DNA of 63,405 nt, counting the filler, from Folioceros fuciformis (Eukaryota), in NCBI GenBank assembly GCA_049999805.1. It is 18 parts of 18 records of this genome, joined end to end, with 100 filler letters (N's around TTAATTAATTAA, not from the genome) between each part and the next. Parts side by side here need not be neighbours in the genome. Positions count along the whole stretch, not along the records: positions 40,631 to 52,425 come from JBNGIO010002680.1; 17 more parts are not named here. One strand, written 5' to 3'. Both the position numbers and the translations under genes were made by a program. The notes below the pieces were generated by a model. The model did not search any database and was not told the origin of the DNA. It saw nothing but the letters and a program-made list of their open reading frames with translations. Below are positions 2,056 through 52,525 of the stretch, one piece after another. The stretch's first letter is position 1; each line of letters opens with the position of its first letter.

Positions 2056-2472
2056 TGGCAAGGCCAAAGTCTATTGTGGTAGCCATTAACCAAGTCTTAG
2101 AGCTTGTGAAAGAAGCTAAACTGCTTATAGGTCTAAAAGGGAAGGATCATTATCGAAGAAAACTCTAAAGAGGACTTCAACTAGGGTGTGCATGACCAGA
2201 GGAGTTATGTCAGATTAACAACTAAGGCAACAATAAGCATAAGGAGGACACTTATTTTTTCTCCTTCTTTTGCTTCTTCCTCCTCCCACCAGCCCCTCCC
2301 TCTTCTTGTTTGTACACAAGTTGGCTGGTTCTTCATAGGAGAAATCACTCTAGCCTAACATTTTAGACTTTTCTCCATGCTCAAGCATTGTAACTCATGC
2401 ACCCAGTGTGTCCCATGTTTTAGACTTTTCTCCATGGTCAAGCATGGTGGCCCATGTTTTGGACTTTTTACC

Positions 2473-2710
2473 GGGTTAATAAAGTCCAATGTGCTTCGAC
2501 TAATGTGTTTAGTGTAAGATTCGTGTTTAGTTCAGTACCATTAGTTTAGATTAGCTTAAGCTAATCAATTGGAAGCTTCTTGCGCAACTTCCGATGCGCT
2601 CCTTGCGCAGTTTCCGATGCGCTCGTTGCGCAGCTTTCAATGCGCTTCTTGCGTAGCTTCCGATACGCTTCTTGCGCAGCTTCCGATGTGCTTCTTGTGA
2701 AGCTTCCTAG
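2473..2710 (+). mobile_element. Copia LTR (family C) U3 fragment with six 23-bp repeats
   Basis: GGGTTAATAAAGTCCAATGTG...TTTAGATTAGCTTAAGCTAATC matches the LTR start at 25274-25370, which follows a copia RNase H and PPT. Unit GCTTCTTGCGCAGCTTCCGATGC x6 at 2576-2710. Confidence 0.75.
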
Positions 2711-2773
2711 GTCCTAAGATTGGAAGCTTCCTATGACTTTAGTGGTAGTTAGACCCTTGCTCAATGCCAGGAT

Positions 2774-3220
2774 CTAGGACTTTAGTGGTAGTGAAGACTC
2801 TTTCTCCTTACTAGCTTGGAGGACCTAGGACTCTAGTGATAGTGAAGACTCTTTCTCCTTACTAGCTTGGACGCTGATATTTTAGCTACTATTGGTAGCT
2901 TGGACGCTGATATTTTAGCTACTATTGGTAGCTTGGACGCTGATATTTTAGCTACTATTGGTAGCCATTAGGGTTAGGGGTAGCCCTATTGTCTAATCAA
3001 GATTTATCTCCCTCATTATTGGATGGATGGATTTTCATATTGGTTTTTTTATATTATCTTTTTAAAATAAATAGACCTAACCTTCTTGATGCATCGAAGA
3101 TGTGCATTGATGTGCATGAGGTTCTTGAGCATAGGAAACAACTTAGCTATGAGGTTCTTGAGCTTAGGAAAAACTTAGCCATGAGGTTCTTGAGCTTAGG
3201 AAACACCTTAGCATGAGGTT
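2774..3220. repeat. Cluster of short tandem repeats (about 51 bp x2, 33 bp x3, about 32 bp x3)
   Basis: CTAGGACTTTAGTGGTAGTGAAGACTCTTTCTCCTTACTAGCTTGGA x2; AGCTTGGACGCTGATATTTTAGCTACTATTGGT x3; ATGAGGTTCTTGAGCTTAGGAAAAACTTAGC x3. Confidence 0.85.
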
Positions 3221-6200
3221 TTTTTTGAAGAGTTGAGGATCTTTCAAAATAAAATTATAAGTACAGAGGGCCCGTACGTCCTATCAGAACCCTACGACGG
3301 AATAGACCGTGACGTGGACCCCATTTAGCGACCACAGAGGGTGCATGCGTGCCCGGGATCACTCCAGAATCCCTAGGCTTCAGGTGTTAAGTCGGCAAAA
3401 TTACCTGGGCATGATTTTCTGCATACACAAGAGCTCTGCCTCCGAACTGGGAATCGATTAAAGTCTCTACAATCTGAAATCGCCGTACCACANNNNNNNN
3501 NNNNNNNNNNNNNNNNNNNNNNNNNNNNNNNNNNNNTTAATTAATTAANNNNNNNNNNNNNNNNNNNNNNNNNNNNNNNNNNNNNNNNNNNNTCATTCCG
3601 AGTCCGTAGCGTCCTTCTCGGCCGGCGCGTTTCCTTTCTTCTGTTTGAGACCAGTTGTTCGGGAAGGTATGCCAGTTCGTGGAAGAAGAAGATTCTATTG
3701 GAGTCCAGACCAGACCAGTCCAGTCCAGTCTATTGGAGCTGTCTCTCCCTGTTCCTGAAATTGCGGTGTGGCGGTAGAGGAGAAGGAGAATTTCCACGGC
3801 CCGCCCAGGCCCCGGCCCCGTCAAGCTGTCGAATTCCAACGTCTTTCTGTGATTTTTCTTGGCGGCTGCTACAGTTGGTGCGGGCACCCAGCCTAGCGCT
3901 GCGTTCTGTCAGTGGGCAGTGGGGTTGCGGCCCTCGGGAGCGCAAGGCTTGTCGGTCTGAGGTTATCCAACAGGGGCCTCTGGAGGCCACCAACGAGGCA
4001 GCTTCCTAACTGTCCGTAGCAGGCGTCGATTTTTTCTCCCGCCTGAGCCGGAGTTTAGCTAGCTATTCTAAGTTGATGTAGAGAGAGATGTGCCGCACAA
4101 TGCTGCATATGTATGATATGTGTGGGGTGGCTTTGGGGCTCTCCTCGCTTTTTTCTTGCGTTGGGTCAATCGTTTACGCCATTGACAAGGATACCCGGCC
4201 GCTCGCGCGTTGCGCACCTCTGATTTTTAGGAGGCGGAACGGGTGCTTTCCCACGGATGCTTTCCCGCATGTGAGGGCTTTGTTGGCGTCTCCTGCATTA
4301 TGTTTCCATACCTTGTAAGCGTGGGCGGCCACAGCCTCCCATAATAATTTTGGCAAGTCCACGTTGCCCTGGATCACCTTGCCCTGCCATGCTGCTCATT
4401 CGAGGGGTTGAATGGAATAATGTCATTAACATTATCCAATTTCATGAGAAGTGGCCAGCCCTTTTTCTAATTCGCGTATAGCTCCAAGGTGGGCCGAGCC
4501 AAGCTTTCTAATTCGCGTACAGCTCCAAGGTGGGCCGAGCTTCCAACAACAATGATCACAATGCTGGAGCATTGATGGTTGACTTCATCTATGTAGAATC
4601 AGCCAACCGGGTGGGTGCATGGGATACAATTCTTGTTACAATGCTTGCGCACGGAGAAAAGTCTAAAATGTTAGGCTAAATTGACTTCTTCTATGTAGAA
4701 CCAACAAAGGCTTCCCAATTCTCCCACTACCTTTCACCCCGCGAGCTCAAGGACAAGGACAGCTCCCTTCAAATTGTCTCTCAAACAGGTCGCAAGCAAA
4801 AACAGATAGCCCAGCTTGGTGAAGCAGACAGCGGCTCCTTTCCCTCACCACAGCGACAAACAGTGGGCACAAGGAGGCGGCAAGCTCCCAAGATGCGAGA
4901 GCAGCATGGGTCAAATTCCCTTCCGCATTGAATTTAGCGGAGCTGTATGTAGAGCAGAAGACAGCGGGCGGGAGGAGAACAGCGCCATGGGGCAGGGAAT
5001 TGCAGGAAGGCACAAGCAAAGGCGAGGGCCTAAACATATGGAAGGCAAGTGTTTACTCCAAAATTGTAGAAGAAGGTTCCGTTGATGAAGTCAGCAATGA
5101 GGAGGAGTTGGGTGTAGTAAGGGTTTAGGGTAAAAGTAAATCTTAAGTACATATTCACATTTAAGTACCCCCTTCATGAAAATAAACAAGTTTAATCCTC
5201 AACCATGCTCTAATTGTATTCGAGTCTCAAAAGTTCTAGCTTTGTAGGGTGGGTAGTAGTAAAAAGATGGAACCACTTGGAACGCAATGCAGTAGTAAGA
5301 GCATGATAGAATAGGTGGAATAAGATAGGCCTTTAAGGTTGAGAGACTAAGTTTGGCATGGTAGGAAAAACAAAGAAGGAGATAGAACCACCACACTTAC
5401 ACGAGAGGAAGAAGAAGAGCATGGACATCCTAATAATAAGAAGGGGAGCTTTGGAATGAAAAATTGTGGAGCCTAAGCTTGCACTCTTAGCCGTCGTTGC
5501 TTAAAAGGGGAATTCGTAGAAAGATTGTTTATGAGGCATGCTAAAAGCACACACTAGGTGGTAAACTCAATGTATGAGGGTGAGAATGAGATAATATAGG
5601 TATTATATCTCTAGACAAACTTTAGACATCATATAGGGTGGCCTTTGAAAGTAACCTCAATGTATGTGTTATGAGGTCTGTGTATGTTTATGTACATATT
5701 AAATATTGTACCATACATACATACTCATATCCGGAGAGACCCACATGCATTTGCCATTCAGTATATTTAAACTCTTCCAAGGTTTAGTACTTTGGGTTGG
5801 ATGGACATAAACCTAAACAACCGACATGCTCTAAATTGACTATTTGAAAGCAAACTCATGACAACTAATATACCAACCATTTTTAAGGATTGCACACACA
5901 AATTGTACATACGGGAAAAGAAAGATGATGATGATATACATATTAAATATTGCACTTATATATACATACAATCCACAAAGAGACCCAGGTACTCTCAGTT
6001 ACTGGGCACTAAGCTTTTACAGGGCAATAAGCTTGCTGACATGTCCAACCAACATATTGGCAAGCCGACATGTGCCATAGCATGTCCAACCACCATATGG
6101 GCAAGGATATCCAACTTGCTGACATGTTCAATCACCACATGTAAGTCTTTTTTGACTAGATTAAGGTGACATATAGGTACCTACATACTACGGTACGTTC

Positions 6201-40272: not shown

Positions 40273-40630
40273 GAACGTTCTCCTGCCCTTCACGAATTAA
40301 ACCCACTTCTCTAATTCGTCTTACAAATTCAAGTTGTTCCATATCATATGTCTTGACATAATGTACATGTTTAGTTCCACCATACCCGTGAGGCATTAGG
40401 ATGGACAATGTTATGTCACCAAATATTGATCAACATTTAGATCAATAGAGTAGTCTTTAGAGTAGCCAGGCATCCGGCTAAGGTACAATATGAAAGTAAC
40501 ATTAATAGCAAGTCCAATACAAACTTGGTGNNNNNNNNNNNNNNNNNNNNNNNNNNNNNNNNNNNNNNNNNNNNTTAATTAATTAANNNNNNNNNNNNNN
40601 NNNNNNNNNNNNNNNNNNNNNNNNNNNNNN

Positions 40631-40975
40631 GACTGATCATTTTTCTACCATCAAGATTGATCATGTTTTTATTGTCACGACTGATCATTTTTCTACCATC
40701 AAGATTGATCATTTTTCTACCATTAAGACTGATCATTTTTCTACCACCAAGACTGATCATTTTTCTACCATCAAGACTAATTATTTTTCTACTATCAAGA
40801 CTAACTTCAATGCCTTTCGCGGTCACTCTCACTCTTACTATCTGATTATTCTCTCACTCTAACTATCTAACTATTCTCTCACTCTAACTATCTAACTATT
40901 CTCTCACTCTAACTATCTAACTATTCTCTCACTCTAACTATCGAACTATTCTCTCACTCTAACTATCTAACTATT
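40631..40975. repeat. Two adjacent minisatellites: 24 bp x7 and 25 bp x5
   Basis: GACTGATCATTTTTCTACCATCAA at 40631-40803; CTATTCTCTCACTCTAACTATCTAA at about 40845-40975. Confidence 0.93.
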
Positions 40976-41490
40976 TCAATGGTTTGTCATGAGGTATCTT
41001 CGTGAATATTCTCTTTTTATGCCCAGTTTGATTATTTCCTCTTTGACAAACCTACCAAACCTGTCCTTTGCACCAGAGGGGACACAACAATGTAGGAGCA
41101 GGTTGTGGATGGCTGGCTGATAGCGCTTGCGACAATAGGATTGGGGATGAGGGACAAAAATGGAACTGTGGCTTGGAACTGTGGCTTGCTGGCCGGTGGC
41201 ATATGAGATGACATGGTTGAGGGTGAAGGATGAAAATGGAGCCCGAAATGGCTTGGATGCCAGACGACTTGAGGGTAGAAAGCCTAAACACCACATGGCG
41301 CCCGGTAACCATGGATGGGGCATGCCCGCAAAAGGCAAGCATAGGTGCCAAAAGGTTTGCTTGCAATGTGCACAAATATCCGGTTTGGTCTTGACCCAAA
41401 AGCTTGCCTACGCGCCAAAGGGGATGCGAGAGTGTAACCTTTGTTTGTAAAAAAACCTAGAGAGAAAACCCGTCCCCTTTGGCATGCCAT

Positions 41491-41872
41491 ACTTGTTTAA
41501 GTGGCTCTTCCCAAAATGGTTTGGAGGACAAACATTCTCCTAAATGTATCTATAAACTACCCTAAACAAAAGATATTGTAGTCTCAGATGAGGAGAGCTT
41601 GTGATGCCATCAACAGTGAGTAAATAGATGATTCTAGAATAATTATTGTAAACGAAGTGTCCTGACGACATACTTTGATTAGGTTTTACTCGTAAATTAA
41701 GCATCTAGAACAAATGGCCCTCACACCAGCTACATGATGCTTAAGGCAGCACAAACAAGGTTAGTGCACACTTGTGCATCCCTGAATTCGTCCACGCATG
41801 GAAACAAAACACGCATGTCACGTTTCACCTCTTTCCCGGGTCTACTACCGTTGGAGGAGTTATTGACGCCAC
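41491..41872 (+). repeat. About 380-bp dispersed duplicate (module Y) of 44514-44895
   Basis: ACTTG.TTAAGTGGCTCTTCC...CGTTTCACCTCTTTCCCGG...TTGGAGGAGTT is colinear in both copies. Confidence 0.9.
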
Positions 41873-42379
41873 CTCTCTATGGCATGCCAAAGAGGACAAA
41901 GATTGTCTGCCCTCTTTTGTTGCATAAAAGCCACAATAATTGACCACTTTGGTGCCCAAACATAAATTACCCTTCTCGCCAAAGAGGACATCTGCACTGG
42001 CACGAAAAAACTAGAGCATTCTCGCAATCATACGATTCTTGTTTCCCCTTCTCTGATGGAAAGCACTCCACACACCCATGATATGAACTCCCTTGTTTTT
42101 AATTTGAAAATTGTGATTCCTCCAACTCCTCATCCCTTATGGCTTTACATGGCCCGCCTCTACGGAAGGCAAATTGGGATGGAGGGGATAGTGCCTCACC
42201 CTCGCCCATGCCTCTAGCCCCTTTCACACTCCAGGCACTCCATGACTAGTGCGTACAGCCCTTGCAGCTATAAGGGCACCTACACGGGCTGAAGGGTTGT
42301 AGGGGCGCCTCTCAAGCAGCTCGACACCGATTGCCCTTTGGCTTGGGGTGTATTAAATCCCGCAGGTCGGGTTCAATTC

Positions 42380-43087
42380 TGTTATTGCAGTATTGGATGC
42401 TCAAAAATGGCAGCAACCTCTTCAACTTTACAGTGCAATGCAACAAGAAGGCTAATTATTACCGTACCCGATTCTGTCACATTTGTGTCCCTCCTTCAAA
42501 CATATGTGAGTGTTGGCACACCAACCTTGGAGAAGGCATAGCAACTACATGCTCAAATAAGAGAACGAGGATATGAAGATGATACTTTTGTGGGCAGTAG
42601 TTTGATGAACATGTATATGAAGTGTGGCAACTTGGAGGATGCTTAGCCAATTGTTGATGGAGTTGGCCAAAAAGTAGTGAAAACATGGACTACCATGATT
42701 GTCAAATACTTTAGTAGGGTATGGGGCACAAAGCCCTTAGTCTTCACTCTTCCATACAAGGAGAAGGCATAGCTAGTCATCATTCTATCATATTTGTGTG
42801 CCTCCTCTCGACATGTGCAGACTTGGGCGTTGGAGAAGGGGAAGCATTTACATAAGAATATCAAAGCACGGGGTCTAGAAGGTGATGAGTTTGTTGCTAA
42901 CAATTCGGTGAACATGTATGCAAAGTGTGGCAGCTTGGAACCCGCTTTGACACTGTTTGATGGACTCGAGCAACACAAACATGTGGCAACTTGGAATGGT
43001 GTGACAACAAGGTCTTCCCAGAATGGTTTGGGCCAAGAAGCTCTCCATCTACATCATGCAATTTTAGCCGCTCCTCCACAGCTGTAG
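42380..43087 (+). pseudogene. PLS-type PPR pseudogene fragment
   Basis: DSVTFVSLL, QLHAQIRERGYEDDTFVG, LMNMYMKCGNLEDA and ALEKGKHLHKNIKARGLEGDEFVANNSVNMYAKCGSLEPALTLFD...VATWN...QNGLGQEAL. Frameshifts and stops present. Confidence 0.85.
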
Positions 43088-44119
43088 GGACGCCTCCCAC
43101 GCGCCTCTCTAGCCCACATCTCCCTTCATGCTCCTCAATATGTGCACCTCACACCTCACACTCCACAACTTACATCCTGAGCAGGCCTCGCTTCTTCACC
43201 CTGCTTGTCAAACGGTCCTTGAGTAGGACCTGCTTCTGAGGTAGTGTAGGCGCTTGCACTTGGCTTTCAATTGCGCACACAATAAGTGTCTTTGTACCCG
43301 AAGTGGAATTAGTGGGCAACAAGATGGTTGAGGAATGTTGAAACTTGCTTGGAGAGCCAAAATGGAGTGGCCGGCTTGGTAAATGGCCGCTTTGGTTGGC
43401 GTTCCAAAGCGGCCACTCCGCATAGCATATTGTCGAAGATACTCCGTGAAAAATGATCAAAATTTGAAGAGAGAGGGTATAGCCGCTTTGGCATGCCTTA
43501 GTAAGTTGCTCAAGATAGTGATGCATATGATTTTGACTTAGTTAGTTATGGAGCCAAAGATCTCCACGAGAATGAAGGGAGTAGACATGTGACCAAAAAA
43601 GCTAAATGCAAGCTATCTCATTACTTGAATTGGATTCCAATTCATTTCTTGTCAACATCAGCCTAGAGAGGAAAGTAGCTCGCTCAATAGGCAATACATG
43701 CATGAAACCGTAGTGTAGGGGTAATAAACTTGAGAGATAACCCACAACAAAATCACGCACTCAATAGAAAAGAACACATTTTCTACATATAGCTATAACT
43801 AGAGAAGTTGTCAGCTGGTAGTGCATCTTGTATCATCACAAGACTTAAGAATAGGTCTATGAGTTGATCATCCTTCAACTTCGAAGGGCTAAGTGCTAGA
43901 CACAAGCATCCAACTTCGAAGGGCTCAATACTAGACCCAGGCATCCAAGAGGTGAGAAACTCAAGAGAGAGCCCACAGTTTACCCCACTCATGTCAAATA
44001 GCGTCACGCACTCAACAACTTGTGACTATAAGTGGAACCCATCAAACAAAGGATTCTCACACAACATTTAGAAGCCATGCATTGGCTTAATGCAACTCCA
44101 CGGCATCGCTGGATCCCTG

Positions 44120-44507
44120 GCAGTATGGTGAGGCAATTAATCGTCACTGAACACACTCTTCTGATCTTTCAAATAGTTTTCAATTTCTTGTCGAGGACAA
44201 GAAAATAGGTTTCTATACCTAGCCTGTACAACGCATGCCAGTATTGTAGGTGCATTTGGACAATCCGTTTGCAATAAAGGAAGCTATTCTTAGCTTCCAG
44301 ACAAAATTTTTGTTTCGGCTCCATGACCAAATCATATTCTGCATGCAGAGGAGTTTGCAAATGTTCTTGGGAAGTGGGACATATTATCTGTCTCTACCTC
44401 AATAATAAGCTTCTGGCCACATTCAACAACTTCTGTGGCTGGCAACTTAGTCATCTATAGACTACAGAGGTTGGAGACTCGAAAGCTTGATCATTTTTCT
44501 ACCATCA
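44120..44507 (+). repeat. About 390-bp dispersed duplicate (module X) of 51805-52195
   Basis: TCGTCACTGAAC...TTCTTGTCGAGGACAAG...GGTGCATTTGGACAA...TTAGTCATCTATAGACT...AAGCTTGATCATTTTTCTAC is colinear in both copies. Confidence 0.9.
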
Positions 44508-44878
44508 CAAACGACTTGCTTAAGTGGCTCTTCCAAGGATGGTTTGGGGCACAAACATTCTCCTAAATGTATCTGTAAACTACCTTAAGAAAAAGATATT
44601 GTAGTCTTAGATGAGGTAAGCTTGCGGTGCCATCGACAATGATCGAATGGATGATTCTAGAATAATTGCTGCAAACGAAGTGTCTTGACAACATACTCTG
44701 ATTAGGTTTTACTTGTAAACTGAGCGACTAGAACAAACGGCCCCCACACCAGCTACATGATGCAAAAGGCAACACAAACAAGGTCAGCGCACACCTGTGC
44801 ATCCTTGAATTCGTAGATGCAAGGAAACAAAACACACATGTTACGTTTCACCTCTTTCCCGGCTCTACTACCATTGGA

Positions 44879-45220
44879 GGAGTTGCTGATGCCGCTTCTC
44901 TTGCCAATATCATGTCTTGCATATGGTGGAGTTGCTGACGCCGCTTCTCTTGCCAATATCATGTCTTGCATATGGTGGAGTTGTTGACGCCGCTTCTCTT
45001 GCCAATATCATGTCTTGCATATGGTGGAGTTGCTGACGCCGCCTCCCCTACCAATATGGTGTCCTGTATAAGCTGGAGTTGTTGATACCGCCTCTCCTAT
45101 CAATATTGTGTCCTATATATGCTAGAGTTGCTGACGCCCCCTTTCTTGCCAATATTATGCTCCACATATGTTGAAGTTGCTGATGCCGCCTATCTTGCCA
45201 ATATAGTATCCTGTAAACTC
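44879..45220. repeat. 49-bp minisatellite x7
   Basis: GGAGTTGCTGACGCCGCTTCTCTTGCCAATATCATGTCTTGCATATGGT, with a period of 49 from 44879. Confidence 0.93.
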
Positions 45221-45822
45221 GCCAAAGCTCGCTGAAAACTTACATTTGAAACACTCTTCTAGCTTGAGTTTGTTTGGTGAGTATGTGAACATGGTATTCA
45301 AGTGAACTGCAATTCGGTTTAAGGCTAGTTGAACATGTATGGAGTTACAAGTATGATTAGGTTTTAGAATCTTAACATACTTCAAATTTGTTAGCTACAA
45401 TACTTATCAAGCGGTGGTGATGGTGCGTAGGGCGATGGTGAGCATAGGGCGGTGGTGATGGTGCGTACGGCGATGGTGAGCGTAGGGCAGTTGTGATGGA
45501 GAGTAGGGCGGTGGTGATGAACGTGGAGCGTAGGCTGGTGGTATGGCATAGGTGTGTGCGCAACTTAGCTATGCCATTATACGGCTATGGGCCTAGGGTT
45601 TCTAAGAGGTGCTCTTTGGGGAAGAGTTTGGATGATGAAAAGTGATGTGGGGCAAGGCCATGTTCATTAGGGATTGGGTATGTGTTTGTGTCCACGTAAG
45701 GAAGGCGGTGGAGTAGGCTCACTGTACATACATAAATAGGTTCAAACATTCAATACTAGTATATACATAGGTAATTACAGGTACCAAAAAATGGTATACT
45801 GATATGGTGGACCAAGCAAGTA

Positions 45823-46320
45823 AGGTTTAGGGTTTAGCGGCAGGGCAAAACGGAATGAGTTTGGTATTTAGTAAAATGGCATAGCAAAATGAGATTAGGG
45901 TTTAGTGGCATGGCAGAGCAACAAGGTTTACAGTTTACAAGCATGGCAGCAGCATAATGGATTTAGGGCATGGCGGGGGAGAATGGATGTAGGGTTTAGG
46001 GGCATTGCGAAGAAAAATAGGTTTAGGGTTTAACGACATGATGGAGCAAAATAGGTTTAGGGTTTAGCCGCATGGCAGAGTGGAGTGGGTTTAGGGTGTA
46101 GCGACATGGTGGAGAAAAATGGATTAGGGTTTTATCAGCACTATGGAGCAAAAATGGGTTTAGAGTTTAGTGATATGGCAGAGTTGAATAGGTTTAGGGT
46201 TTAGTGACACGATGGAGAAAAGTGGGTTTCGGGTTTTATAAACATTATGGAGCAAAATGGGTCTAGGGTTGAGCGGCTTAGAGTGGAGCTTATGGAGAGC
46301 ATTATAGGGTTATGGGTTAC
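45823..46320 (+). repeat. About 34-bp minisatellite containing the plant telomere motif (about 14 copies)
   Basis: Consensus approximately GGTTTAGGGTTTAGCGGCATGGCAGAGCAAAATG; each unit carries about two TTTAGGG-like heptamers. Confidence 0.85.
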
Positions 46321-49300
46321 AATGAGGAGTACAATTGTTTGGTTTTGATCACTTTACAAGACTTTCTACATGCCTCTATCACATGGCGCGTGACACCCAG
46401 CCTTTACTTGTCAAGGACACCCCTTGCCAGTGTGTTCTCAATTTTGCACCAGGGTCAAGGGGGTGAAGTGTCATATTAGTCACAAGCATAAGAACTTCGA
46501 TAGAACCACTTGGGTGGCACAAGTGCGACTTGCTTCTTCCTCCGAACCAGCTGCCAATCCTCTTTTAACAGATCCTCTGGGGTCGTCCCCGAAGGCTTGG
46601 TTGTGGCTTCAAGGGCAATTTGATCACTTGTTGGCTCTTTTCCATGCTCGTTTTCCATGTCCTCGCCTCTTCCGACATCTCCCTAGGCGCGTACATGATG
46701 ATATTTGCCTTGCTTATTGTCTTCCCTTGGATCGCCTTGCTTGGGACCCAAGGGATGAGGGTGCTTGGATTTTGTTCCTTTTCCTTCCTAGATGGTGCCT
46801 TCAGTGCTCTAGGGGTGGTCCATCAAGTCATAGGGAGGAGGTGGCCTCTCGACTTCGCCGCTTTCGATCCGGAGATTGGCAAGCTCTTCAAAAGGAGGAT
46901 TTACTAGCAGCAAAATCTCGATTGGAGTTAGCTAAGGTTGACAAGGTGTGCCATGACCCATTTAAAGCGCGTCTCAAGTGGTGTCTCATGTTGGGCAGGG
47001 ATGGTGAATATGCTCGGGCTGCTAGAGCATTGCGCCCAGAGTTAGCTGCATCTGCAACTGAGGACACCATTGCTGCACTGTTTTTAGGCATGCACTCTCT
47101 TCTGCGCCGCGACTTTCTGTAGGGGGTTTGTCTGGCACAGTTTACGACCATTTTCGAGATTATTTTTCAACTGGGGATCCCTCAAATGGTTTTTCGGAGC
47201 TTTATACACTAGCAGCTGTTGTGGCCAAGGGCGAAGTTCCCAATCGAATCTCTCAAGTTTTGGCGGCTAGTAGGCTACTTGCATTGGAAAAGCCCACCTC
47301 AGGAGTGCGCTCGATTGCTGTGGGGGAGGTATTTTTGCGCCTTATCAGCCGAAGTATCGCAATTCAACTTAGGGAGTACTTCCAAGCGCATCTTGCACCC
47401 CACCAATTTGGGATTGCTACCCAGGTGGGTGTGAATCTGCCGCTCTCGGCATCCAGGCGGCCCTTGAGTTACATCCTCACTGGGTAGCTTTGCAGGTTGA
47501 TCTTGAGAATGCTTTCAACACCGTCTCTAGGGTCGCCATCTTCTTGGAGCTCAAGAGTGCAGGAGGTCAATTGGCAAGTCTTATCCTTTTTGTTCTCTCC
47601 TTCTATGGCTCGCCATCCAAGCTCTACTACCAACACGGCCCGACTTTTGAGGGGGTCTCAATTTTTGACTTAGCAATAGGCACAAGGCAAGGGGATCCAC
47701 TAGGGGTGCTCTTTTTGCAATGGTGCATTTTCGTGCGTTGTCCTTTATTGCCTTAGCATTTCGGGAATGCCTTTTCCCTTTCGTGGCTGATGACACTCAT
47801 ATTCTTGGGCAAGGAGTCATAGTCAAAGCAGCATTTGATTTCTTCTCATCAGAGCTCTCCAAGGTGGGGTTGCGGGTCAAGCTATCTAAATGCAGGGTTT
47901 GGTCCCCTTTAAGCATCACTCCCCCCCTTCAATATTTGGGGGGGGGACATCACCCCCTTGCAGGGACTTCGAGTCTTGAGTGCACACCCAAGACGCACAG
48001 GAGGTCCCACAGTGCCGCCTGTGGGACCTCCTGATTTTGTTCATAGGTTTGTGGATGAAGCATTGGATGAAGATTTGGCTCATATCATGGACCTCTCACA
48101 AATCGATGATCCTTAGATTGTGTTTGGTATCCTTTCTTCTTGTTTTGCACGACGACTGGGTTACCTCTCTACAATTGTTGCGCCTTCTCCATTTTTCTTA
48201 TCAAGTCTCAAGAAGTTTGATAATCAAGTTATGCAGGCTCTTGGGAACATCATAGGTCTGGCACCTTTGAGTATGATGTCGGTGATTTGGCTCAGAAGCA
48301 GGCTTCTTTGCTAGTCGCCTTTGGAGGGGTTGGTCTTTTGGTCATGCAGGCCTCTGCCCCAGTTGCCTTTCTCGGCAGCTGGGCCCTCTCAGCTCCAATT
48401 TTGGCCTCTCGTTTGTTGCTTACAAGATTCCCTTGTTCTTGAAAGTTTTATTTCAGGTGTTGAGGAGGGCGTTTTCCCTTTACAGGTATCTCTTAGGCAA
48501 GCGAGGGATTCTCTACCTTCGAAGGCTCGTGAGGCTCTACCTCCTTTCACCTCCTTTTCTAGGGAAGGGTTGAAGGGTCTCCAAGCCTCCCTCCTAGAAA
48601 AGCAATATGGTCAAGCACTAAGAGCCCTTCTTTCAGACTCATCCATCCCCAGGTCTTCTCGAGCTTGTATTCGATCTTGTTCAGGTAAAGGAGCGGGCTC
48701 TTGGTTTTTAGCTCGACCTTGCATCCAAGCGTTTTGAATCGCACCAGCAACTTTTGCCACCGCAATGAGATTTCGCTTAGGTTTGGCCCACCCCTTGGCT
48801 TTTTCTCTCTCTACATGCAATTGTGGGGTTGCCATTGTCGATATAGGATCCTATTTGGCACGTTGTCCCGTTGGGGGGCACCGCATTGCCACTCATGATG
48901 TAGTTCGAGATGTCATGTTCTCAACGGCTAAGGAGTGTGGGTTTCTTCCGTATAGAGAGCGTCCATATGCTTTGCGCAATGGGGTTTCACTTAGAGCCGA
49001 CCTTTTCTTCACTAGGGGAGAACAAGTTTGTGTTGATGTAGTTGTTACAAATCCCACTAGGAATTCAATTTGTGAGCACGTCATCATCAACTCCCCTGGT
49101 TGGGCAGCAGAGGGTTGTGCAAGTGCTAAAGTCCATAAGTATTCTCCCTTGCAAGACGGTGATACTTTCATCCCCCTTTCTCTTGAGACTCATGGAGCTA
49201 TGGGCAAGGACTTTTCAAGGTTTATCAAGGAGTGCACCAAGGTTCATTAGCGCAATAGGAATGGTGTTCTCCCTCTTTCCTTTGTGGTGGCCTTCTTTCG

Positions 49301-49454
49301 ACAACGTGTATCCATTGCTTTGCAATAAGCATTGGCCAATGCAGTTTTTAGAACAGTAACAAGCGCAAGTCAAGCGGATTCTTCGGCACCGGTGGTAGGT
49401 AGGCCTCTTGTTATTCCACATCATGACATTTTGGGAGCAGTATGTAGTTTTTAA
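46320..49454 (+). mobile_element. Non-LTR retrotransposon with restriction-like endonuclease, CRE-clade-like, decayed
   Basis: N-terminal CCHH remnant (PVCSQFCTRVKGVKCHISHKH). RT motifs LLALEKPTSGVRSIAVGEVFLRL, QFG, VDLENAFN, GTRQGDPLG, ADDTHI. C-terminal CNCG...LARC...G.RIATHDVVRD, RADL...VDVVV, KVHKY, FIPLSLETHG, RVSIALQ. Many stops and frameshifts; frame ends TAA at 49454. Confidence 0.88.
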
Positions 49455-49976
49455 AAATGATATTCGCAGGGGAGAGTACATCTTTTTGCCTTTGGCCCTA
49501 ATGAGGTTATTCCTCCAATCTTTGAAGTAGATGAGAGTTTCCATCTCTTTTTCAATCATAAAAAATACCGATAATTATAACCACAACCACAATATAATAT
49601 AATATGAAGTTTAAGAACTATGTATATACCTTGAAAGTGATTTTAAATTTGGAGTTCCTTGAAGACAAAGTTCCTTCTTTTCTGAATGTACACTTGGCGC
49701 TGCACAAAGTCAAGACTCGTGTTTTGAAAGACCTACACCTTATGGTGTGCAAGAGGGCCAAGAGGCTAACCTTGAAGATCTTCCTAAAACACTGAAACCT
49801 ACTCTTGCCCGGTTTGTGCATAATGTAATCTACAGCATACATTACTGATGACGTGTTGCTTACGTGACTATGACGCAAGGACTGGCTACTAGGGCAAGGG
49901 TGGTGGTACAGGGTTGTGGCGTTCTGGGATGTGCAGTGTGCGGTGTGTGTTTTGGAGGCGACGAGTGGCCAAGGAG

Positions 49977-51215
49977 ATGGATATAGCTGGAGCCTCGAAT
50001 GAGAGGGACGGTGTGTGGAAGGGAGGAGGAAGCACGGGCTACGGAGTGAATGGGGAGAAGCCGGGGGAGCGGCTGCCCGGGGATGTCTTGGATAGGATTC
50101 AGGCATGCCTGCCCATTACAGACTTCTTCCGCTCCCGCCTGGTTTGCAAGAGTTGGCATTCGAATTTGCTGTCGCATGCATTCCGGAAGATGCATGCCGA
50201 GCTGGCGGCGAAGGAGAAATGGGTGCTCACTCTGGCACGCTGCGATCATGGGAGGGACATCCACAACTTTCCTTGCGCTTACAACCCAGTGTCGAATAAG
50301 TGGGTGAGGCTCCCCTTGACGTGCTTCTGCCCTAATGGTGCGTCAGGGAATTTCCTTGCAAGCGGAGGCATGGTGTGCTTTCAGGAAGGCACTGAATCGA
50401 GCCGCAATGTCATCGTGTGCGACCCGTGTCTGGGTAGTCGCAATGCTGTGCCTGTGCCCAGCTTCATGGCAGACTCCGAGCTGCAGCTGGTAGGTTTCGT
50501 GAGGGACCGGGGCAGCAAGGAGTTCAAGGTTTTCGGGATCTGCTTCACCAGCCCGGAGCAGCCGGCGCCCACTGTAGTGTACGACTCCAGGAAGGGGGCG
50601 TGGGCCGTGACGGGGACAGCGTTCGTGAGCATGACTCGCCAGATCGAGAGGAGTGTGGTGTGGGGAGGTTGTCTCTATGTGGTGGGACGTGGTAGTAGAG
50701 GTTGGGGAGGCCGGTCTTACGAGGTGTTGAAGTGCAAGGTGGAGGACGGCGTTTGGCGCCGGGTGCCGGCCTCTTTTGTCATCGATGGTTGGACCTCGAG
50801 GGTGCAGCCTGGCCTGGACCTGGTCGTCCACAACAACAGATTGTTCCTTATAGGAAAGGTGGATGGCGAGAATGCGGAGGAAGACGCGTTCGACTACTTC
50901 CCTGTCATGTCGGGGTGTATCCTGTGGGAAGTGGTGGAAACTGAGCCGTATCTGAGAGTTGGCTCTGTCCGCCGAGCTCCCTCCTACTTAACGGAAGATT
51001 GGGCCGGTGCATTCTCTGGCCGTGACTGCTTGCTCTACATCCAGGTGTCCGACACCAGCCCCGTGGTTGCGGTGTGTGACGTATCGACAGCACCATATTC
51101 CTGGTGGCTGCTCCCTCCGTCGCCGGCAGCCGAGCAGCAATATCATGGGGGTGTCTCATTCGTCACCATGCCTGTCGAACCTGAGCTTGATGCTTTCGTG
51201 GGCAGCCAGAGTTGA
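49977..51215 (+). CDS. Intronless F-box protein (F-box/kelch-like beta-propeller type), 412 aa
   Basis: F-box LPGDVLDRIQACLPITDFFRSRLVCKSW, followed by AYNPVSNKW, ASGGMVCF, IVCDP, VYDSRKGAW, GCLY, LVVHNNRLFLIG. An upstream in-frame ATG exists at 49929. Confidence 0.92.
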   Translation: MDIAGASNERDGVWKGGGSTGYGVNGEKPGERLPGDVLDRIQACLPITDFFRSRLVCKSWHSNLLSHAFRKMHAELAAKEKWVLTLARCDHGRDIHNFPCAYNPVSNKWVRLPLTCFCPNGASGNFLASGGMVCFQEGTESSRNVIVCDPCLGSRNAVPVPSFMADSELQLVGFVRDRGSKEFKVFGICFTSPEQPAPTVVYDSRKGAWAVTGTAFVSMTRQIERSVVWGGCLYVVGRGSRGWGGRSYEVLKCKVEDGVWRRVPASFVIDGWTSRVQPGLDLVVHNNRLFLIGKVDGENAEEDAFDYFPVMSGCILWEVVETEPYLRVGSVRRAPSYLTEDWAGAFSGRDCLLYIQVSDTSPVVAVCDVSTAPYSWWLLPPSPAAEQQYHGGVSFVTMPVEPELDAFVGSQS

Positions 51216-51569
51216 TGGAATGGTTTCCCGTGGCATTGGCTGGGACGCCTTTGTCCTTGGGACCCAATGGTGGGAGGTAGCATAGCGTGGCATACAGTTA
51301 CGAGCAGAACACACTGCAGTTATCGGCGAAGATGAAGCTGTCGACGGATGCCGACCTCGATTTCCATGGCGACAAGATGATGAAATGGGTCCTCACTGTA
51401 CATACACCTCAGGCATGGAATCTGAGTTGACATAGTTGCTCTCAGCTTTCAGACCCAACTTTCCTTTCCTTGCTGACGAACAGGTCACTGGTCGGAATGG
51501 TTTGAACAAGCGAGGGTTCTCCACTGTGGACGATGCAGGGATGAGTCTTGTGTGCAAGGAAACAGAGTT

Positions 51570-51630
51570 ACTTGAGGAACGAGGACTTGAGGAACGAGGA
51601 CTTGAGGAACGAGGACTTGAGGAACGAGGT
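51570..51630. repeat. 15-bp tandem repeat x4
   Basis: ACTTGAGGAACGAGG x4. Confidence 0.9.
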
Positions 51631-52219
51631 CCTGAGTATGGAACTAGCATGTACAAACCATGCCGACTGTGTGTGCTTTGGCTGCACATGAAGTTCTTCG
51701 GAAACCGACAGATGTGCACGAGGACCCTGTTCTCAGGATTCGTGCCGGAATTGGAGCATGCAGACAGGTTGCAGCGGACAGGGGGCACTTCACCTTTCCA
51801 TGGGCGGTACGGTGATGCAAGTAGTCGTCACTGAACGCACACTTCCTCTCTTTCAGACAGTTTTTGTTTTCTTGTCGAGGACAAGGAAATAGGTTTGAAC
51901 ACCTAGGCTGTACGTCGCCTGCCAGTACTGAAGGTGCATTTGGACAAATCCTATGCAATAAAGGGAGCTGTTCTCACCTTCAAGATCAATTTTTTTTTTG
52001 GTTCTGTGACTAAATCATATTCCGCACGCATAGGAGTTTGCCGATGTCCTGGGCAAGTGGGGCATATCACTTATCTGTACCTCGGTAATAAACCTCTGGC
52101 CACATCCGACAACTTCTGTGGCCTTAGTCATCTATAGACTGCAGAGGTTGGTCGGCAACTTAGTCCCGGAAGCTTGATCATTTTTCTACATCATAGGTTA
52201 GAGATTTTTCTACATCATA

Positions 52220-52425
52220 GGTTGGAGATACGGAAGTTTGAGTTGGAGACATGGAAGTTTGAGTTGGAGACATGGAAGTTTGAGTTGGAGACATGGAAGT
52301 TTGAGTTGGAGACATGGAAGTTTGAGTTGGAGACATGGAAGTTTGAGTTGGAGACATGGAAGTTTGAGTTGGAGACATGGAAGTTTGAGTTGGAGACATG
52401 GAAGTTTGAGTTGGAGACATGGAAG
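52220..52425. repeat. 21-bp perfect minisatellite, at least 9 copies, running into the gap
   Basis: GGAAGTTTGAGTTGGAGACAT repeated. Confidence 0.97.
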
Positions 52426-52525
52426 NNNNNNNNNNNNNNNNNNNNNNNNNNNNNNNNNNNNNNNNNNNNTTAATTAATTAANNNNNNNNNNNNNNNNNNN
52501 NNNNNNNNNNNNNNNNNNNNNNNNN

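Follow-up and report, generated by a model that had tools for sequence, protein, structure and literature searches.

The window analysed here is a 63,405-nt stretch from the assembly of Folioceros fuciformis (GCA_049999805.1). It contains, on its plus strand, a degenerate retrotransposon which on contig depth would span 45413-49568 (~4.16 kb). On sequence criteria this element is a long interspersed nuclear element (LINE) of the restriction-like endonuclease (RLE) type. It is probably a dead full-length copy of an abundant and dispersed RLE-LINE family that carries telomere-motif repeats in a 5′ untranslated region (UTR) of ~960 bp. These repeats form a 34-bp minisatellite upstream of the open reading frame (ORF), and this array is most likely a variable tandem repeat in the 5′ UTR of the family, neither a telomere nor an insertion target.

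Decayed coding region and relatives of the element

The coding region is a single decayed ORF of ~1020 codons (46370-49433, plus strand), interrupted by six frame changes (near 47080, 47421, 47702, 47938, 48257 and 48421) and five in-frame stops (46391, 48114, 48735, 49251 and 49326). Its start is probably the ATG at 46370, with a stop already at codon eight. Relatives found by tblastn span 46430-49433 over six successive frame segments; P0006, for example, aligns with residues 23-1069 of its 1096. When the ORF pieces are joined with an X at each break, they score 551.6 bits against a profile of the reverse transcriptase (RT) and RLE that was built from 11 full-length relatives, and they cover positions 3-707 of its 709 positions. 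An earlier note on this DNA had described one decayed frame with an RT, a C-terminal Cys/His knuckle and a PD-(D/E)xK-type endonuclease, and all of these are confirmed by the repaired frame and the motifs described below.

The N-terminal part contains a Cys/His zinc-finger remnant (46409-46489, plus strand) of non-canonical, shortened spacing, which can be aligned with the CCHH finger region of P0006 and is matched in Pfam by Zn_SUZ12 alone (E 0.046). The same note had allowed for two fingers; one remnant is present, and a second N-terminal finger was not seen in the ORF translation. The RT core (47083-47940, plus strand) shows the motifs NAFN (47502), RQGDPLG (47685) and FVADD (47780). Pfam RVT_1 is weak on the fragments of this copy (E 0.06-0.19) and clear in its relatives. 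The C-terminal part (48816-49200, plus strand) combines a CCHC knuckle with a PD-(D/E)xK RLE, and its motifs occur in the order C-x-C (48816), RAD (48993), VDV (49035) and K-x-x-KY (49128). The histidine of the knuckle is replaced by tyrosine, and the spacing is C-X1-C-X9-Y-X3-C-X8-THD-X19-E-X11-RAD-X11-D. This fits most of the restriction endonuclease-like (REL) pattern given in parts of PMC12857005, with X8 instead of X9-10 before THD and X11 instead of X12-14 after RAD. Because loop lengths vary, a strict REL regular expression picked up no more than 4 of the 29 sequences tried, and profile alignment was used in its place.

No AP-type endonuclease (APE; Exo_endo_phos) was detected by Pfam in the pieces of this copy or in 16 relatives, and over its first 240 residues the copy aligns with P0006 and P0064, whose N-termini are not of the APE type. 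RVT_1 was the sole domain (E≤0.001) in 14 of these 16 relatives, P0001 and P0004 being without match, and the 11 full-length relatives contain RVT_1 and no APE. Their alignment has invariant C-C-H-C, H, E, D, D and K columns. The LINE-type RT, the CCHC knuckle with a PD-(D/E)xK nuclease and the lack of an APE together correspond to the features of the RLE-encoding non-LTR (long terminal repeat) groups CRE, NeSL, R2, R4 and Hero taken together.

A phmmer search with the C-terminal 272 residues (48432-49250) against 1.84 billion representative proteins yielded 1590 proteins at E≤0.001, with a best value of 2.9e-44. This full HMMER scan replaced a word-index protein search, in which a 170-aa RLE piece had found no match. 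The named relatives include proteins of Klebsormidium nitens and Closterium, as well as Cymbomonas, Symbiodinium, Diplonema, Porphyridium, Pyropia and a tardigrade. Among the matches listed, none bears the name of a LINE clade, and the ESM Atlas returned only RVT_1 clusters annotated as 'hypothetical protein' for P0006.

Comparison with R2 proteins of solved structure (9nl3_A, 9dou_A, 8gh6_A) supports the RLE-type assignment. The family profile matches the R2 RT with E-values of 3.7e-37 and 6.3e-37, compared to 4e-17 for L1 ORF2p. Its match to the R2 RLE stretch is weak (14.8 bits, i-E 0.057), but the motifs are in register: C..C..H..C, RH, E, PD, DVTV and K..KY align. In both systems one ORF encodes, in this order, a zinc finger, the RT, a CCHC knuckle and a PD-(D/E)xK nuclease. 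Unlike R2, the element lacks a 28S rDNA context, its 3′ flanks are dispersed, and no Myb domain was found by Pfam in the element or the scanned relatives.

The phylogenetic position was analysed with RT-RLE alignments of 53 rows (IQ-TREE) and 142 rows (FastTree), which were composed of the relatives and hold no named CRE, NeSL, R4 or Hero references; the root of the tree rests on a single, very long APE-LINE outgroup. In the IQ-TREE analysis, the element belongs to a nine-row clade (SH-aLRT, the Shimodaira–Hasegawa-like approximate likelihood ratio test, 95) together with the Closterium and Klebsormidium proteins, P0006, P0033, P0064, P0040 and P0083. The same clade of the element and streptophyte proteins is recovered by FastTree.

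Copy structure of the family and the telomere-motif array

Other copies of the family were deduced from contigs of four public runs (X1-X4) aligned to the 11.8-kb contig that carries the element. X1, X2 and X4 derive from one sample and X3 from another study. Summed contig depth is a crude measure that does not equal copy number, and contigs cannot isolate a single copy. The differences in X4 are mostly C>T (137) and G>A (256), as in a bisulfite-type library, so that its depths should not be compared with X1 and X2.

The single-copy flanks have a depth of 12-26 in X1 and ~4-17 in X2. At the 5′ boundary, the summed depth in X1 rises from 26 to 423. The 5′ module (45359-46540) shows depths of 423, 404 and 525 in X1 and of 344, 265 and 453 in X2, followed by 930 and 746 (X1) or 500 and 413 (X2) at the start of the ORF (46541-47328) and by 1012-1330 (X1) or 590-805 (X2) at 47329-48510. 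The 3′ end (48511-49692) reaches 4385-4581 in X1 and ~2400-3100 in X2, and from 49693 the depth is 17.8 and 11.2, respectively. Unique contigs with 0 differences stop at 45442 (X1 record 6, X2 record 14), which, with an overlap of k=31, places the start of the repeat near 45413. This profile, with its abrupt 5′ end and fixed 3′ end, has the plateau that full-length copies should produce in a 5′-truncating LINE.

The 3′ UTR (49434-49568, plus strand) terminates with ...CATAAAAAATAC, and in this copy no poly(A), microsatellite or telomere repeat follows 49568. At this position, 13 contigs in X1 and 15 in X2 depart into mutually unrelated flanks, with an agreement of 0.44 and 0.43, which is about the level of unrelated sequences. 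Insertion of the family is thus dispersed. By analogy with R2, the nuclease would nick the target DNA and the RT would extend from this nick by target-primed reverse transcription; incomplete reverse transcription would then leave 5′-truncated copies, as it does in R2 biology (parts of PMC10499050 and PMC13580325 cover the nick-and-prime scheme). Frequent 5′ truncation is proposed as the reason why 3′ ends far outnumber 5′ ends. The terminal ~1.06 kb (48511-49568) are 3-4x deeper than the RT region, and the sharp step near 48511 suggests either that truncation is favoured there or that a non-autonomous derivative has the same 3′ end. A near-perfect 36-bp palindrome is located within the ORF at 47998-48033, and one contig each in X1 and X2 jumps 43 bp (47978 to 48022), indicating that some copies are without the palindrome region.

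The contigs also bear on the lesions of the ORF. At five of the frame-breaking indels (47419, 47702, 47938, 48257 and 48422), other contigs carry the alternative state, so the lesions are not fixed in the family, and intact or less broken copies probably exist. It is very improbable that the frameshifts are assembly errors in a copy that is really intact. The alternative states and the location of some indels in homopolymers (GGGG at 47702, a run of eight G at 47938) would fit such errors, but the five in-frame stops are substitutions and not indels, the knuckle histidine is exchanged for tyrosine and the RPIA proline for serine, and at the indel sites the state seen in the window holds the greater part of the depth.

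The minisatellite is located at 45824-46290 on the plus strand, as defined by Tandem Repeats Finder (TRF) and a motif scan, and contains 12 units between 45824 and 46273. Each unit consists of a ~20-bp spacer and the 14-base double telomere-type motif GGTTTAGGGTTTAG, which occurs in every one of the 12 units on the plus (sense) strand with 0-3 mismatches; the minus strand of each unit presents the plant telobox AAACCCTAA. Unit spacing is 33-36 bp, with two wider gaps of 61 and 68. The array holds 7 of the 10 exact TTTAGGG occurrences in the window and is nowhere pure (TTTAGGG)n. It ends ~80-100 bp before the ATG at 46370, in agreement with the earlier report of TTTAGGG-containing units within about 100 bp upstream on the same strand. 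The window contains 34 tandem arrays with a period of at least 10, which cover 5663 of 61705 bases (~9%), and the adjacency of the minisatellite to the ORF is therefore by itself unremarkable. What goes far beyond chance is a double telomere unit of 14 bases within a repeat of 34 bp. On another contig of the window (25596-26939), 31-, 49- and 143-bp tandem repeats carry one TAAACCC heptamer per unit with no retrotransposon nearby; these single heptamers are within chance expectation across the 34 arrays.

Upstream of the minisatellite, the 5′ module includes a 38-bp tandem repeat with 2.8 copies (45413-45519, plus strand; TRF), which forms the 5′ start of the repeated unit inside the high-depth plateau, and a non-tandem part recognised by contig depth (45520-45823, plus strand). 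Four sites in this spacer (45535, 45567, 45680 and 45736) are covered by 5-13 distinct contigs each, with an all-depth of 104-590 in X1, so the spacer is multi-copy. Its commonest form elsewhere has an extra repeat of ~36 bp at 45586-45621 (depth 435).

These data make it rather likely that the array is internal to the element, and we infer that it is physically part of other full-length copies. A distinctly less probable explanation, which still deserves some weight, is that the 38-bp array, the spacer and the telomere-motif array are a separate repeat or satellite abutting the element, whose true 5′ end would then lie near 46300. With 34 arrays in the window, chance adjacency within ≤100 bp amounts to roughly one in five. 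This explanation has difficulties with the flat 5′ plateau in X1 and X2, which is continuous with the start of the ORF and stops where the unique contigs stop. The depth over the array itself (404-525 in X1, 265-453 in X2) is level with the rest of the 5′ plateau, and in X2 the depth of the whole 5′ module is level with that of the ORF start. At 46352, between the array and the ATG, the X1 depth of 594 is intermediate between its neighbours, and an unrelated repeat would need to have a coincidentally similar abundance. The neighbouring 49-bp array (44875-45204) serves as an internal control: it is single-copy with a depth of 18-26, which shows that minisatellites as such are not generally deep.

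Several observations weigh against placing the array inside a full-length element and favour a separate repeat. Among the 32 pieces listed of more than 9500, none bridges the array and the ORF or the 5′ boundary, and because depth does not measure copy number, an independent repeat that is about as abundant could account for the 5′ module. In X4, the array bins (932 and 521) are deeper than the ORF bins (90-260), which fits extra independent copies of the array. Of the 25 relatives whose upstream sequence exceeds 300 bp, only 6 have a minisatellite there. The view of this copy as a full-length insertion is also weakened by the lack of a target-site duplication, the best candidate being a 9-mer with one mismatch at unrelated positions. 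Also, the state of this dead copy accounts for most of the depth at the indel sites; at 47419, for example, 236 of 1072 carries the extra C.

As a general trait of the relatives, 5′ minisatellites were rejected, since these repeats are found downstream in 11 of 27 relatives compared to 6 of 25 upstream.

If the array is internal, the 5′ repeats might act as an internal promoter, as likened to the monomers of mouse L1. The 5′ UTR of mouse L1 consists of tandem monomers that function as a promoter. Similar to mouse L1, the element has 5′ tandem repeats upstream of the ORF, and the repeat number varies between its copies; unlike in mouse L1, the unit carries a telomere-type motif that contains a telobox.

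Telomere association of the family and its relatives

A scan of metagenome contigs for relatives identified 79 loci, five of which (L004, L013, L014, L015 and L030) sit inside (CCCTAA)n, which borders them at either end; in all five the sense strand is the C-rich one. These five loci form one clade (support 99). In IQ-TREE, the sister of the element's nine-row clade (SH-aLRT 90, unstarred) is a group of 16 rows (95) to which this telomere-embedded clade belongs, whereas FastTree places the telomere-embedded clade more basally. Kinship of the family to telomere-targeting elements is therefore plausible, and the term 'CRE-like' of the earlier note draws at most indirect support from this sister position, in one of the two trees. 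Among the relatives, L014 has large tandem repeats of ~200 bp inside its 5′ coding region. Others are flanked by microsatellites, namely L058 by (AAT)n and L030 by (TGTAG)n on both sides and L021 by (GA)n. These three loci and L012, L022, L042, L059 and L069 terminate at their 3′ ends in microsatellites or are bordered by them; the repeats are (AAT)n, (TGTAG)n, (GA)n, (GTTT)n, (TTAG)n, (ATA)n, (TG)n and (TA)n, which suggests several microsatellite-targeting lineages in this superfamily.

The earlier note regarded the copy as a candidate telomere-repeat-associated element and the array as either its 5′ region or its target site. It is highly unlikely that the family targets telomere repeats or the minisatellite in the style of MoTeR, FoTeR, Cnl1 or TRAS, with the array as its insertion site. 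Such targeting would be in line with the sister group of (CCCTAA)n-embedded elements in IQ-TREE, with the double telomere unit that is not due to chance, and with the frequent site specificity of RLE elements (described in part of PMC4640811). A target array is, however, expected at both ends, as in the five embedded relatives, while the 3′ flank of this copy is unique DNA and its upstream array consists of 34-bp units that are nowhere pure telomere repeat. The mutually unrelated 3′ flanks of the 13 and 15 other copies are at variance with insertion into a fixed site, be it spliced-leader genes or telomere repeats. The polarity is also opposite: the G-rich TTTAGGG is on the sense strand here, while the C-rich strand is in sense in the five embedded relatives and, according to parts of PMC12857005, in FoTeR and MoTeR, with TAACCC as the FoTeR flanks.

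The copy is moreover located between a pentatricopeptide repeat (PPR)-like fragment on its 5′ side and an intact F-box/Kelch ORF on its 3′ side, and this gene-like sequence on both sides disfavours a terminal position on a chromosome. Missing 3′ repeats, diverse flanks, opposite polarity, an impure array and the intergenic position thus set the family apart from telomere targeters, and neither telomere association nor site specificity is supported. Of the two roles suggested for the array, the 5′ region fits the depth profile, while the target site does not agree with the diverse 3′ flanks. The comparison of 3′ flanks that the earlier note had proposed as a check counts against a link to telomeres.

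There are nevertheless similarities to MoTeR, FoTeR, Cnl1 and the CRE group. MoTeR has telomere-like 5′ repeats. The element shares the architecture of RT and REL-endonuclease with this group (parts of PMC12857005 and PMC10088271), the RAD motif with MoTeR and FoTeR, and tandem repeats concentrated in the 5′ region with FoTeR (PMC12857005, in part). Its placement beside telomere-embedded elements is a further likeness in IQ-TREE, but not in FastTree. In contrast to MoTeR, FoTeR and Cnl1, the element is interstitial, lacks telomere repeats at its junctions, and has its telomere motif interspersed with 20-bp spacers.

A speculative and rather unlikely proposal is that a streptophyte RLE-LINE lineage with kinship to telomere-embedded elements has kept or captured telomere-type repeats as a functional 12-unit telobox array in its 5′ UTR. 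TRB-type factors could use such an array as an internal promoter or enhancer, or the array could be a silencer through which the host recruits Polycomb and keeps the family in check. On this proposal the array might be a relic of a telomere-targeting ancestry, comparable to the 5′ repeats of MoTeR. Plant TRB proteins bind teloboxes and recruit PRC2 or activate genes, as stated in parts of PMC11287191 and bioRxiv 10.1101/2020.11.28.402172. The array resembles plant teloboxes and interstitial telomere-like repeats in its minus-strand motif; while plant teloboxes are usually single promoter motifs, they are arranged here as 12 units in a retrotransposon.

Genomic setting and significance

In the window, N44-TTAATTAATTAA-N44 linkers (e.g. 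40531-40630 and 52426-52525) connect 18 small contigs, so the surroundings past each contig edge are uninformative. The element is located on an unplaced contig of 11.8 kb (40631-52425), and no second copy was detected within the window by blastn or tblastn. Rfam gave 0 matches over the whole window at gathering thresholds, and a target context of rRNA, snRNA or tRNA is thus lacking. The plant-type content of the window comprises an acyl-ACP thioesterase exon (Pfam E 1.3e-16), a tubulin exon (Pfam scan) and fragments whose Pfam matches can be read as retrotransposon domains typical of Ty1-copia- and Ty3-gypsy-type LTR elements.

The PPR-like fragment on the 5′ side is of the PLS type (42773-43087, within the region 42600-43090) and remains below the Pfam PPR threshold (E 0.0073). 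Its core of ~34 bp (42907-42940) has a summed depth of ~3300 in X1 and ~3100 in X3, and 45-60 contigs branch off at either side; this extreme multiplicity suggests a very large PPR gene family. Directly downstream of the element, the intact F-box/Kelch ORF (49977-51215) is a single-exon ORF with a single database homologue of 42% identity. X3 contigs cover it at a depth of 35-219, compared to 0-8.65 over the element; that X3 represents RNA is only a guess.

To our knowledge, surveys of plant LINEs describe L1 and RTE elements. A literature search of titles and abstract openings revealed, among the matches listed, no land-plant LINE described as RLE-type, and none of the papers found assigns a plant element to CRE, NeSL, R4 or Hero.

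The metagenomic relatives embedded in (CCCTAA)n or flanked by microsatellites are documented alongside the element, and the family is useful for the annotation of transposable elements in non-seed-plant genomes. The probable 5′ UTR with its telobox array is a testable curiosity, and if the proposal of a functional array were true, the array would be a working regulatory module of a plant retrotransposon. The abundance of an RLE-type LINE family in a plant-like genome, and its grouping with sequences of the streptophyte algae Closterium and Klebsormidium, point to a streptophyte lineage of 'early-branching' LINEs that is old and has been passed on vertically.

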